NCBI GenBank assembly: GCA_016207245.1 | Contig: JACQQA010000005.1 | Location: 68 to 64,067, forward strand | DNA from: Candidatus Magasanikiibacteriota bacterium | GTDB taxonomy: Bacteria > Patescibacteriota > Patescibacteriia > Magasanikbacterales > UBA922 | Direction: 5' to 3' | Length of the DNA: 64,000 nt | Shown here: positions 60,522 through 64,000 of the stretch, one piece after another | Layout: every line of letters begins with the position of its first letter | How positions within the stretch are numbered: the first letter of the stretch is position 1 | Position numbers and translations under genes: made by a program | Notes under the pieces: model-generated | Databases searched by the model: none | Seen by the model: only the letters and a program-made list of their open reading frames with translations | Told to the model about the DNA's origin: nothing

Positions 60522-63500
60522 ATGTATTTTGCCGGTAAGACAAAGAAAGGTTTACTGATAAGCGTAATCACGCTACTGATTTTTATTGAATTTTTTGGTT
60601 TGGTGTTATTGCCAAAAGAAGCGAGAGCCCAAGCGACGGAAGTTTTTGGAGGTCCGGTAGAAGTAAATGTTGCAACCGATGCGCAGGCGGCAAAGAAAGA
60701 AGTAAAAGAAACTGTCGGCGCGCAGTTGTTGGGGAGCGCGCTCGGCGCGCTGGTGCATGGTTTTTCGTATTTTATGCGCAAACTGGCCTACGACTCCGCG
60801 ATGTATGTGGCGAACGGCGGCAAGGGGCAGGGAGCGCTGGCTTTCAAGCAGGGGTTTGGCGATTATTTGCAGACAGTAGCCTTAGATTCGGCGGCTGACG
60901 CTATCGGCGAGCTTGGCAAGCCGTTCGGCCTTAATCTTTGCAAGCCGCCGGATTTGAATTTTCAGGTGTTTTTGCAGATTGGTTTGCGCGGACTATATTT
61001 TGGCGATGCCGCCGGCGGACCTCAGCCGAATTGCAAATGGCAGGATATGAAAGGCGCGTGGGAAAACGCCGATGAGCAATATTTTGGCGAGAACGGCCAG
61101 CTGACGTCGGAAAAAATGTTCAGCAACGCTTTGCGTTTTGAAAATACGGATTTCGGCGTCGCGGTCGGAGCGGTGGAGAGGGTTGACCGCATTCAATCAA
61201 AACAAGTGGCCGGCGCGTCGGCGCAAAGAGCGGAAGGCGAAGGGTTTAAGGCGGCGACGGATTTAATCACCGGCAATGTCAAAACGCCGGCGCAGGTAAT
61301 CAAAGAAGAAACTTATTCAGCCACGAATAAACACCAATCAACTTTGACCGCGAGCCAAGTCGGCGGCATTTACGGCAGCGGCGCTTTGCAGGTAATTCCT
61401 TTGGCCGGGTCGGTTTTTCTTAATACTTTGGCGACCGAGGGCATAAAAAATCTGCAAAAATATTTTCTTTCTTTGTTTGACGAAAGCAGCGGTGGCGGTG
61501 AAGATGCCTCCAGTGTGATGAGTTTTGAATCAGCCGGGTTTCAGCAGAATTTAAAAAAAGCCAAAGAAATTTTTTCCAGCTTTTTGGCGGTTAAGATTGA
61601 TCAAAGAGAAAATTATGATTTGCTGACCGAGTTCACCACTTGTCCGGACACGGCGCCGACAATTCCGGGATTGAACAATTGCGTGATGGACGACAGTTTG
61701 CGCGAAGCCGTGCGCCGCGCCGACACCGGCGAGCCGATGACGATCAGGGAAGCGATGAAAGAAGGATTATTGAAAGGCGATTGGATTTTAGCTTCTCCGC
61801 GCCGAGTGGCTGACAACACGAGTTATGGTTGTTACAAAAACGCTTATTGCTATTCAAATATCCAAAAATTGCGCCGGAGCCGGATTCTGCCGCTGGGTTT
61901 TGAAATCGCGGCTTTGCTGGCCGACCCCGATCATCCGCAGGAAAAATGGACTTTGCAATATGTGGTTGATCATTTTGATGATTGCAAATATTCCAAAGAT
62001 TCCGGCGGTAATGTCATTATTGAACCGGACGCAGGTAATTATCCGTACTGCCGTTTGATTGATCCAAATTGGATTATCAAGTCGCCGGATACGCGGTGCA
62101 ACGGCATGGTTTACAGCTCAAATTTAATTGACCAAACCAGCGGTTTGCGCGCGCAGGAATGCGTTGACGCGCAGACTTGCATTAAAGAAAAAGCCGACGG
62201 CAGCTGCGATTTTTTCGGCTATTGCGCGCGTGAGAAGAAAGTCTGGCGTTTGCCTGGCGAGGCTTGCGAATCATACAACAATACTTGCACCACTTATACA
62301 TCCGGCGATGGGGCATTCGTTTCTTATCTGGCCAAAACCGTGGATTACGGCGAGTGCAATTTTGACAGCGTCGGCTGTTTGGCATATAGCACGGAAAAAG
62401 AAGGCGGCGATTGGGTCGCAAGCATTAACGCTAAAGATAAAGATTACAAAAATTACGGTCGGAACCAGGCGCTGTTTTTCAACGAGAGGATAAAAAATTA
62501 CAGCTGTTCAGCGTCGGATAACGGCTGCAGTGGGTTTTATCTCGGCACTTTAAAAAGCGGAACAACAGACGAATATATAAATAATTATGATAAGCCGATT
62601 TTTGTTAAAAAAGCGCCGGACTATTTGGGCTGTTATGATATAAATCAGAATCAGAATTCACCAATGATTAATTGGCCGCAAACCAAACCGGAGTTGGGCC
62701 AAGTAAGCCAAGACAAGAAATGCGCTGATTTCGCGCAGGTTTGTCTGCCGGAAGAAGTCGGCTGCGATTCTTACACGCCCAAGAAAGGCACTTATTCCAC
62801 GTCGATTCCGGGTATTGCCGGAGAAGAAAATAAATGCGACGCGAGCTGTGTCGGTTACGATACTTTCAAACAAAACGCGACCAATTTCGCGCCATCTGAG
62901 TTCCCGCTTTATTTTATTCCCGATAACGGCAAGTCTTGTCCGGGCGATTACGCGGGGTGCGATGAATTTACCAACATTGACGAATTAGCCAAAGGCGGCG
63001 AGGGGCTTGAATACTACACCGACATTAAATATTGCGAATTGCCGAATGACAAAAATCAGAAAGTATTTTATTCGTGGTATGGCTCAATGAGCGAAGGTTA
63101 TGTTTTGAAATTGCATAAACTGCGGCCGGTCATCGATAAAGATTTGGCATATTTGGAGTCAATGGAAGATAATAATTTAATTGATTTGCAAAATTTAGGC
63201 AACGAAACCGTTGATGATGTTTTTCCTCTCGGCTCGCCGGCTTACGCGACTGATAATCCGGAAAAATTAGCGGAACTTTATACAAGTTGCAATGCCGCCG
63301 GCTATAATAAATTAATCAACGGCGGAATGCCCGGCATTGACGGCACTGCCAGTTTAGACTGCCGCGCGTTGTATGATAAAGATGGCAAAGTTTATTATCG
63401 TATTTTGAAAGATACGATCACCGTGTCGGAAGAATGCCATCCATTGCGAAAAACTACGGCATATTTTTATGATGACGCGGCGCTTACAACATCAGCAACT

Positions 63501-64000
63501 TGCGGAGAAAGAGGCGGGTATTGGAATAGCAACGTTTGCCAGCGCTGTACTAATGGCGGTATTTACAAAGACGGCGCCTGCGTTTATTGGGCGATTGCCA
63601 AACCGGGAGAGTCAGATTCCTGCAAGGGGCCTAGTAGCAATAAAGACGCGTATAACGGTTGCCGCGAATATGTGGGCAATGAGGGCAATGACACAAAGAC
63701 GGTTTTTAATCTGGATTTTGAGCCAATCGGCAATGATTTGAGCAAAGTGAAAGCCGGCTGGTCTCCCGCGGATAAAGTACAGGTGGTGTCCGAATCTGTT
63801 CAGGTTGGCTTGCACTCATTGCAAGTTACCGCCAATGTTAATTACTTAATCGCTTCCAGCACATTAGAAAAAGACGGCTGGTATAAATTATCTTTTTGGG
63901 CGCGGGGCAAGACAAAGTCGCTTGAGGTTATGTTTAGCCAATTTGACGGCGTCAATAAGCCAACCGGCGAGTTTACTTCGTTCGATTACAAAATCAGCAT
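60522..64000 (+). CDS. giant secreted Cys-rich protein, 3'-partial (at least 1159 codons, continues beyond the window)
   Basis: I translated the frame from ATG 60522 by hand and found no stop up to position 64000. It is absent from the ORF track, presumably because no stop codon closes it. N-terminal signal/TM (LLISVITLLIFIEFFGLVLLPKEARA), many Cys pairs, and the last ~100 aa look like a carbohydrate-binding jelly-roll. Confidence 0.8.
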   Translation, partial: MYFAGKTKKGLLISVITLLIFIEFFGLVLLPKEARAQATEVFGGPVEVNVATDAQAAKKEVKETVGAQLLGSALGALVHGFSYFMRKLAYDSAMYVANGGKGQGALAFKQGFGDYLQTVALDSAADAIGELGKPFGLNLCKPPDLNFQVFLQIGLRGLYFGDAAGGPQPNCKWQDMKGAWENADEQYFGENGQLTSEKMFSNALRFENTDFGVAVGAVERVDRIQSKQVAGASAQRAEGEGFKAATDLITGNVKTPAQVIKEETYSATNKHQSTLTASQVGGIYGSGALQVIPLAGSVFLNTLATEGIKNLQKYFLSLFDESSGGGEDASSVMSFESAGFQQNLKKAKEIFSSFLAVKIDQRENYDLLTEFTTCPDTAPTIPGLNNCVMDDSLREAVRRADTGEPMTIREAMKEGLLKGDWILASPRRVADNTSYGCYKNAYCYSNIQKLRRSRILPLGFEIAALLADPDHPQEKWTLQYVVDHFDDCKYSKDSGGNVIIEPDAGNYPYCRLIDPNWIIKSPDTRCNGMVYSSNLIDQTSGLRAQECVDAQTCIKEKADGSCDFFGYCAREKKVWRLPGEACESYNNTCTTYTSGDGAFVSYLAKTVDYGECNFDSVGCLAYSTEKEGGDWVASINAKDKDYKNYGRNQALFFNERIKNYSCSASDNGCSGFYLGTLKSGTTDEYINNYDKPIFVKKAPDYLGCYDINQNQNSPMINWPQTKPELGQVSQDKKCADFAQVCLPEEVGCDSYTPKKGTYSTSIPGIAGEENKCDASCVGYDTFKQNATNFAPSEFPLYFIPDNGKSCPGDYAGCDEFTNIDELAKGGEGLEYYTDIKYCELPNDKNQKVFYSWYGSMSEGYVLKLHKLRPVIDKDLAYLESMEDNNLIDLQNLGNETVDDVFPLGSPAYATDNPEKLAELYTSCNAAGYNKLINGGMPGIDGTASLDCRALYDKDGKVYYRILKDTITVSEECHPLRKTTAYFYDDAALTTSATCGERGGYWNSNVCQRCTNGGIYKDGACVYWAIAKPGESDSCKGPSSNKDAYNGCREYVGNEGNDTKTVFNLDFEPIGNDLSKVKAGWSPADKVQVVSESVQVGLHSLQVTANVNYLIASSTLEKDGWYKLSFWARGKTKSLEVMFSQFDGVNKPTGEFTSFDYKIS

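Follow-up and report, generated by a model that had tools for sequence, protein, structure and literature searches.

A giant cysteine-rich protein with a predicted export signal, encoded by a syntenic gene of Magasanikbacteria, and its possible role at the cell surface

Analysis of a 64,000-nucleotide stretch of contig JACQQA010000005.1 (assembly GCA_016207245.1, Candidatus Magasanikiibacteriota bacterium; hereafter the window) revealed that a giant gene begins at ATG 60522 on the plus strand and runs off the window end. Comparison with orthologues indicated that the window holds the first ~40% of this gene, which would be ~8.7 kb long and encode a protein of ~2,900 aa. Orthologue lengths, a conserved signal peptide and the number of cysteines all agree with an earlier reading of the DNA letters alone (the sequence-only reading), which had proposed one very large exported Cys-rich protein. 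As to its role, we favor, with a probability of roughly 0.5, a Sec-exported chain of disulfide-linked domains that is held at the cell surface as a contact fiber with a variable end.

The reading frame and its family

Translation of positions 60522–63998 (+) gave 1159 codons from ATG 60522 with zero stops up to the window end, and this open frame was lost in all of 2000 mononucleotide shuffles of the segment 60522–64000. N-termini of homologues align at the Met of ATG 60522, an in-frame stop lies upstream at 60375–60377, and the sole other upstream ATG (60435) falls within a repeat element; ATG 60522 is the correct start of the giant gene. Comparison with an 83%-identical orthologue, the 2,906-aa open reading frame (ORF) of MFQN01000003.1 (Magasanikbacteria RIFCSPLOWO2_12_FULL_43_12; hereafter L001), revealed 133, 92 and 400 nucleotide differences at the first, second and third codon positions of the plus frame, and 294 synonymous versus 169 non-synonymous codon changes. 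Given the open frame together with this third-position bias, the giant frame is a real, conserved gene under purifying selection. Re-translation brought to light no in-frame stop that the sequence-only reading had overlooked, and its other reservation, a frame created by sequencing errors, is excluded because the frame aligns without a break, over its whole length, with orthologues at 83–90% identity.

The gene was absent from the ORF list made for the window because the lister omits ORFs that run off the sequence end, as had been supposed. The list contained in its place six minus-strand ORFs (60209–60781, 60993–61196, 61613–61819, 62182–62421, 62658–62873 and 63612–63815), and the pattern of codon changes relative to L001 confirmed the earlier suspicion that all six are antisense artefacts: in five of them the changes were mostly non-synonymous (synonymous/non-synonymous counts 15/30, 3/18, 1/32, 3/18 and 4/34), and the sixth, 61613–61819, appears "synonymous" because its third codon position coincides with the wobble position of the plus frame. 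Two of the six acquire stops in L001. For annotation practice, this shows that a contig's largest gene can go unseen, and ORFs antisense to it be promoted, when an ORF list leaves out end-truncated frames.

The closest orthologues are 2,898–2,906 aa long, from which we infer that ~1,750 further codons, and the stop codon of the window's own gene, lie past the window end; in 35 loci with a complete gene the product measured 1,988–3,253 aa, mostly 2,500–3,250. The window protein showed 83–90% identity to L001 and to the database proteins P0001 (HZC26_00445, 89%), P0002 and P0017 (84%, 2,898 aa), and 38–56% identity to >100 others over 95–100% of the query; US42_C0003G0044 (P0027) is a further family member. 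A first homology search yielded 16 proteins, nearly all of them "partial", and the view that assembly breaks within the gene leave every homologue partial was dropped once a profile search gave >100 complete proteins (168 proteins at E ≤ 1e-5, the 120 listed being mostly complete, at 2,700–3,300 aa). Relatives were encoded in 489 stretches when one genome per species was scanned. When HMMER was run exhaustively against 1.84 billion cluster representatives, 1,813 clusters passed E ≤ 1e-3, and 1,262 of them passed E ≤ 1e-30; these representatives are clustered at 50% identity, and 1,262 is a lower bound. All of the top 150 HMMER clusters carry the window-type region at their own N-terminus, and the homology of the window protein to the family is collinear from the signal peptide onward (E = 0).

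Every family record is named "hypothetical protein", and the named organisms are Magasanikbacteria, Parcubacteria or Patescibacteria. Judged from these comparisons, the family appears to be confined to Magasanikbacteria-type Patescibacteria, nearly all Magasanikbacteria carrying the gene at the same chromosomal spot, and the gene looks like a single-copy, vertically inherited, syntenic core gene of the whole lineage. A 50-mer from the window end had no match in the metagenome contigs searched (metagenome_contigs). Magasanikbacteria are tiny groundwater bacteria belonging to the candidate phyla radiation (CPR), with genomes of ~1 Mb. A gene that takes up ~0.9% of such a genome, at the same locus across >1,000 sequence clusters, points to a function central to Magasanikbacteria biology.

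Export signal, cysteine framework and domains

The first 36 residues (60522..60629, +) form a predicted Sec-type signal peptide with a K-rich n-region, a hydrophobic core of ~20 aa and A-R-A before Q37; the layout is KTKK, then LLISVITLLIFIEFFGLVLL, then A-R-A before Q. The call was made from hydropathy and the A-x-A pattern across homologues: 98% of 230 homologues have a core with a Kyte-Doolittle hydropathy of at least 1.6, and among 240 sequences Ala occupies position −1 in 227, and A, V, T or S position −3 in 224. Hydropathy revealed no second segment of transmembrane (TM) grade in aa 1–372, nor elsewhere in the 2,906 aa of L001; a candidate second TM helix at aa 60–82 was rejected, with a median best 19-aa hydropathy of 1.07 and a value of 1.6 reached in 1% of sequences. 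Because of the conserved A-x-A and the lack of any other TM-grade segment, what had been described as a signal or anchor helix is best predicted to be a cleavable signal peptide, not an anchor. Membership among sortase-anchored proteins was likewise rejected, since L001 has no LPXTG-type C-terminus and ends in ...NFDNIIVVAPGD, without a C-terminal hydrophobic segment.

The 1159 aa encoded in the window contain 37 Cys (3.2%), 35 of them within aa 371–1050 (5.1%). Against a background of 0.69% across 42 other window proteins, this gives a binomial P of 5e-14, and the giant protein is the most Cys-rich large protein of the window. The dozens of regularly spaced cysteines announced by the sequence-only reading were found, with all five quoted motifs in place (aa 374, 526, 562, 582 and 612), although the spacing is not strictly regular. 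In an alignment of 240 sequences, each of the 37 Cys is 93–100% conserved, and the full-length alignment has 94 Cys columns conserved in at least 80% of sequences, an even number, among which the hairpin spacings C-x6-C and C-x7-C occur 10 times each; the hairpin often reads C-x5-[VN]-G-C-x2-[YF]. Where cysteines were lost, the loss tended to be joint, as for 374/387 (5/5), 488/510 (16/16), 553/562 (4/4) and 526/547 (5/6). Because Cys are lost in pairs, the pattern points to disulfides formed by the conserved cysteines rather than to three- or four-ligand metal sites and, in combination with the signal peptide, to an extracytoplasmic, disulfide-stabilized protein. No gene for a disulfide-forming enzyme was seen in the 64-kb window.

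Behind the signal peptide lies a conserved N-terminal domain (aa 37–370; 60630..61631, +), mainly helical, with a G/A-enriched start, the Cys pair C140/C171 and the motifs GGKGQGALAF, RLEGxGFK...ISGxIKTPA and SVFLNTL (alignments A1–A3). The Gly/Ala-rich region noted earlier is present there, although the enrichment is modest (31% G+A in aa 37–135 versus 17.6% overall). The domain is helical in the AlphaFold model of the whole window protein (model 1), but with a predicted local distance difference test score (pLDDT) below 50, and gave no Pfam, PDB or fold match. Cys-rich region A (aa 371–1034; 61632..63623, +) contains 34 of the 37 window cysteines and includes two confidently modeled sub-domains, a helical bundle with a beta-sheet at aa ~371–560 and an alpha/beta sub-domain at aa ~800–1034 (pLDDT 62–92), with no significant fold match in PDB or BFVD. 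The window then ends within a beta-sandwich resembling family 22 carbohydrate-binding modules (CBM22), of which it holds the N-terminal ~60% (63624..64000, +; aa ~1035–1159 of ~1035–1230), including C1047. Beyond the window, Cys-rich region B extends to aa ~1980; conservation is poor in the stretch after it, and the C-terminal end again contains Cys. The mean fraction of the commonest residue in full-length sequences, taken per 100-aa block, was 0.44–0.63 over aa 1–1700, 0.38–0.47 over aa 1701–2000, 0.15–0.35 over aa 2001–2600 and 0.29–0.48 over aa 2601–2898 (0.48 at aa 2601–2700), and the extreme C-terminus is conserved, with the motif VQVxDNWGWCxGxC. Tandem domain repeats were rejected, hhalign between sub-regions reaching at most 31% probability (aa 560–800 versus aa 1220–1500); the short C-x6/7-C motif is the only element that recurs among sub-regions.

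The terminal segment had been described as jelly-roll-like, a view upheld by fold comparison. A model built on the corresponding segment of the 89%-identical P0001 (model 2; pLDDT 81.6, predicted template modeling score 0.69) is all-beta from model residue ~240, and Foldseek matched it to CBM22 structure 4xup_C (E 3.6e-8, probability 1.00, target template modeling (TM) score 0.66, root-mean-square deviation (rmsd) 4.0 Å over 167 columns), with further matches to 1h6x, 1dyo and 2w5f, and to CBM16 structure 2zex and other CBMs after these. Superposition on CBM22 structures gave target TM scores of 0.60–0.67, an rmsd of ~4 Å and 11–18% identity. On the basis of these models, aa ~1035–1230 are predicted to form a CBM22-like (CBM4/9/16/22 type) beta-sandwich, of which ~125 of ~195 residues fall within the window, and this agrees with PF02018 (CBM_4_9) matches in relatives, namely a sub-threshold match in the L074 protein (17.5 bits versus a gathering cutoff of 25.9) and a precomputed match in P0030 only; neither the window protein, with its partial domain, nor full-length L001 matched PF02018. 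Conserved aromatic residues in the alignment of the domain are W1080, F1066, Y1121 and W1126. The beta-sandwich is shared with the CBM22 modules of Xyn10C (4xup) and Xyn10B (CBM22-2; 1dyo, 1h6x), which belong to the clan of PF02018. Unlike in those enzymes, the module is a single one of ~190 aa in a protein of ~2,900 aa, and Pfam and NCBIfam searches found no glycoside hydrolase domain in three full-length members or P0017.

No family library or solved structure matched the giant protein except at this one module. Pfam and NCBIfam assigned no family to the window protein or to full-length orthologues, the L074 protein giving a chance match to CIAPIN1 besides its CBM_4_9 match. Neither the single protein nor a full-length profile retrieved any PDB sequence below E 0.19, and Foldseek with model 1 gave no credible match either in PDB (best E 0.23, a TNFR Cys-rich domain) or among the viral structures of BFVD (best E 8e-3, TM score 0.05).

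Chromosomal setting and possible roles

The window is core chromosome, with genes for LexA, FtsW, L25, NusA, RuvA, GyrA, S1, FtsH, ClpP, SMC, YceG, QueA, TGT, UvrD, YidC, a Wzy_C protein, GroEL, RF, Sua5 and KsgA. A look at the neighbors for pili or secretion components, suggested by the sequence-only reading, turned up none, and no pilus or secretion-system genes were found anywhere in the 64 kb. Clustering of all ORFs of 80 related loci gave the order c8 – Wzy_C – GroES – GroEL – (c10) – RF – Sua5 – (DUF4015) – KsgA – c1 – giant gene, and the window shares RF – Sua5 – KsgA – c1 – giant with 67–75 of the 80 loci. Synteny breaks down after the giant gene, where the genes vary by locus. In 75 of 80 loci the giant gene has c1 (59650..60276, +) as its immediate upstream neighbor, mostly 1–10 nt away. 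The product of c1 is predicted to be a single-pass membrane protein of ~208 aa with an N-in TM helix, whose extracellular part would comprise a C-x5-C pair and a C-terminal helical domain besides two TSP3-like Ca-binding repeats. The repeats gave a TSP3_bac Pfam match below cutoff (E 2.8e-4) and weak matches to the TSP3 regions of MtsD/CglD. Comparison across 21 genomes revealed median identities to the window of 58% for RF, 48% for KsgA, 44.5% for Sua5 and 43% for c1, and of 32.5%, 38.9% and 31.4% for three window segments of the giant protein; the giant protein thus seems to evolve faster than housekeeping enzymes, and more slowly than would be expected of a host-range determinant.

We propose, at the even odds given above, that the product is exported through Sec, that its signal is cut after A-R-A36, and that it folds outside the cell as a chain of domains locked by ~47 disulfide bonds, in the order helical N-domain, Cys region A, CBM22-like sandwich, Cys region B and poorly conserved distal third of ~900 aa. 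The mature protein, having neither a membrane nor a sortase anchor, would most likely be held at the surface non-covalently; c1, as a presumably co-transcribed Ca-binding membrane protein, is the obvious candidate partner or tether, and glycan binding by the CBM-like module could act in addition or instead. The giant protein would then act as a long cell-surface fiber or contact protein whose conserved base faces the cell and whose variable end faces partners or substrates. Surface retention, the role of c1, glycan binding and the contact or adhesion function are parts of this proposal that we infer. Host attachment, put forward in the sequence-only reading, is plausible given a module of glycan-binding type and a variable C-terminal third, and is not established: there are no pilus or secretion neighbors, the gene is a syntenic core gene, and over its first ~2,000 aa the protein falls only moderately short of KsgA and Sua5 in conservation.

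Several observations weigh against the contact fiber. Its fixed place in a housekeeping block and the conservation of its first ~2,000 aa (31–39% identity for the window segments versus 44–48% for KsgA and Sua5) argue against a host-specific, rapidly changing adhesin, and Pfam and NCBIfam detected no recognized adhesin domain (Ig, PKD, FN3, cadherin or LamG). No anchor was found, so the protein might simply be released; the CBM-like domain is below the Pfam threshold; model 1 has an overall pLDDT of 57, with about half of it below 50; and the paired Cys losses may reflect few independent events. The family is known from sequences and predicted models, and an episymbiotic lifestyle of this organism and of Magasanikbacteria is assumed.

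For a gene that is vertically inherited, syntenic and conserved, an envelope structure is at least as good an explanation as a host-specific adhesin. The giant protein could be a self-directed scaffold, a structural part of the cell's own wall or surface (S) layer (a spacer, an S-layer-like support, or an element of division or shape), whose CBM-like module binds the cell's own wall glycan, with no host contact, and we regard this as the main and a serious rival, possible albeit with clear reserve. The near-universal occurrence of the gene in a fixed position after the GroES/EL, RF, Sua5 and KsgA genes is in line with such a role, as are the envelope glycan genes of the same block (Wzy_C and, in relatives, the DUF4015 glycosyl-hydrolase-like gene), the good conservation of the first 2,000 aa and the lack of pilus or secretion neighbors. 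However, classical S-layer proteins are Cys-poor and have SLH or CWB2 anchors, whereas Pfam found neither domain here and the Cys content is 3.2–3.6% across the window protein and orthologue versus the background of 0.69%, on which grounds membership among monoderm S-layer proteins was rejected; a poorly conserved distal third of 900 aa would also be unexpected in a purely internal scaffold. It is unlikely that the cell releases the protein as an effector (a polymorphic toxin, or a secreted enzyme with a lytic or predatory function) whose active domain lies in the C-terminal part outside the window. Such an effector would account for a signal peptide without an anchor and for the variable C-terminal third, CBM22-type modules normally accompany glycoside hydrolases, and a reference cited in PMC13104272 has connected giant Omnitrophota genes with the degradation of cell walls. 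Yet no catalytic, RHS/YD, haemagglutinin-repeat or toxin domain was detected in the three full-length members or P0017, or through the full-length profile against PDB sequences, the extreme C-terminus is conserved, unlike the tips of polymorphic toxins, and no conserved small "immunity" gene follows, the downstream genes differing by locus. Membership among polymorphic toxins, Rhs proteins or contact-dependent inhibition (CDI) systems was rejected for the same reasons.

Downstream of the giant gene, and visible in related loci only since its position is beyond the window, 17 of 80 loci carry within one to three ORFs the gene c9 for a polytopic and coiled-coil protein of ~1,050 aa (for example L049:19306–22464; a signal sequence, ~8 TM helices and a long charged coiled-coil). 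Two independent but faint matches suggest that the membrane domain of c9 is close to VirB6-like families (NCBIfam CD3337/EF1877, E 1e-3; Pfam TrbL, E 9e-4 in 1 of 14 members). By analogy with the SPEARE proteins of DPANN (PMC10266531), the giant protein might therefore form the extracellular arm of a type-IV-secretion-like contact apparatus with c9, a reading that we consider improbable: both matches are far under curated cutoffs, the closest relative lacks c9 in the 4.7 kb downstream of the gene, neither a VirB4 nor a VirD4 ATPase turned up at any of the loci, and the giant protein itself has no ATPase domain. Least credible, and in practice refuted, is a frame produced by chance or error, a pseudogene or a cytoplasmic metal-binding protein, for which nothing speaks except the lack of annotation; the frame is conserved in hundreds of genomes under purifying selection, the conserved signal peptide speaks against a cytoplasmic location, and the paired loss of Cys, not in threes or fours, speaks against metal binding.

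Giant surface proteins of CPR bacteria and DPANN are already known as a kind. The CPR predator Vampirococcus lugosii has giant membrane or surface proteins of 1,392–4,163 aa that are thought to mediate host recognition (PMC8080830), large (>1,500 aa) putative adhesins occur in OD1/Parcubacteria (PMC4508563), and SPEARE giant proteins were described in Nanohaloarchaeota (PMC10266531). Like the Vampirococcus and OD1 proteins, the Magasanikbacteria protein is very large, is predicted to be extracytoplasmic, comes from a CPR bacterium with a reduced genome and has a part in recognition or attachment proposed for it. Compared by description, those proteins have recognizable interaction domains (WD40, TPR, PKD or saposin) or internal repeats, whereas the Magasanikbacteria family has only the CBM-like module, ~94 conserved Cys, and a syntenic core gene rather than an accessory one. 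The resemblance to SPEARE is that an ultra-small organism has a giant extracellular protein and that relatives may have a type-IV-secretion-like neighbor; the membrane anchor, the Ig-like domains and the VirB4/TraG ATPase domain of SPEARE are all missing here, and membership was rejected because the sole TM-grade segment is the signal sequence and no Ig or ATPase domain is present. Literature searches returned just the general idea of giant CPR/DPANN surface proteins and no description of this family with its Cys framework and syntenic core position. Its unnamed Magasanikbacteria orthologues share the architecture from residue 1, the Cys pattern and the place after KsgA and c1, and the window copy differs in nothing essential, though in its spacer to c1, described below.

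We also considered, as a speculative and rather unlikely extension of the contact fiber, that the giant protein, c1 and, in many relatives, the VirB6-like c9 constitute an undescribed lineage-wide contact apparatus, with a disulfide-stiffened stalk, a glycan-binding module and a variable docking tip. If true, bacteria would have a counterpart to the SPEARE systems of DPANN, and it would be the key to understanding how partners are found and tapped by this CPR lineage. Should the protein belong to a contact or attachment organelle of any kind, it would provide a handle on which partners an uncultivated lineage has (by way of an antibody target, a glycan-binding module and a variable tip), as well as a marker gene of the clade and a source of new disulfide-rich folds; should it be a self-envelope scaffold, the picture of CPR cell walls would change.

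Further features of the locus and the window

The mechanically called ORF of c1 begins at TTG 59494 (260 aa), whereas homologues begin at the Met of ATG 59650 (MERDPF..., 208 aa), so that the first 52 codons of the longer ORF are probably not translated. A search with either start found no record of the c1 product, and the Sua5 product of the window was matched on one 1.2-kb Logan contig only.

The spacer between c1 and the giant gene is 245 nt in the window versus 1–10 nt in relatives, and contains a palindromic repeat element of ~140 nt (60341–60479) that occurs once in the window. This element comprises four copies of the box CTTGTCATYCCC (two per strand), 15-nt terminal inverted repeats, and a 30-nt direct repeat present twice with the hairpin TTCCCGC-TTTC-GCGGGAA. 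Its RNA fold z-score is −5.0; an Rfam scan of the element and spacer, together with promoter and terminator scans, found nothing. At least 120 metagenome stretches carry the motif TTCCCGC-N4-GCGGGAATGACAAG; their contigs have 30–70% GC, and the motif often forms inverted doublets 30–70 nt apart with a conserved "CTGGA" flank. The arrangement appears REP/REPIN-like, and we take it to be reminiscent of the dRS3 repeats of Neisseria.

Among the members of the syntenic block are the Wzy_C protein (50805–52313; O-antigen ligase/O-oligosaccharyltransferase-type) and the unannotated 316-aa c8 (49787–50737); the DUF4015 glycosyl-hydrolase-like gene lies between Sua5 and KsgA in many relatives and is lacking in the window. 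The three could be related to glycosylation or to the wall glycan to which the CBM-like module may bind. Between GroEL and RF the window has an AAA_14/DUF4143 ATPase gene (55290–56558), where relatives have c10, encoding a small membrane protein, or nothing, and this gene looks like a strain-specific insertion into the conserved block.

On the downstream side, c9 is often followed by an unannotated protein of ~330 aa (c18). In L001, the giant gene marks the end of the conserved block and the start of a variable region, and three consecutive toxin–antitoxin pairs of the HEPN/nucleotidyltransferase (MNT-HepT) type follow it (L001:10134–12603). Dozens of records of metagenome-assembled genomes (MAGs) titled "uncultured Gammaproteobacteria bacterium" (binchicken, SRP co-assemblies) carry the locus with the same synteny, and the label on these MAGs, which are among loci L004–L080, looks like a placeholder or an error.

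Elsewhere in the window, a 1,232-aa ORF (2556–6254) whose only Pfam match is the Lamin Tail Domain (E 3e-10) probably encodes another large extracytoplasmic protein. The only other Cys-rich product of the window (3.8% Cys) is a 211-aa PRiA4_ORF3-like (plasmid pRiA4b ORF-3-like) protein (1237–1872; E 1.6e-55), encoded beside the gene for a LexA-like repressor (60–830).

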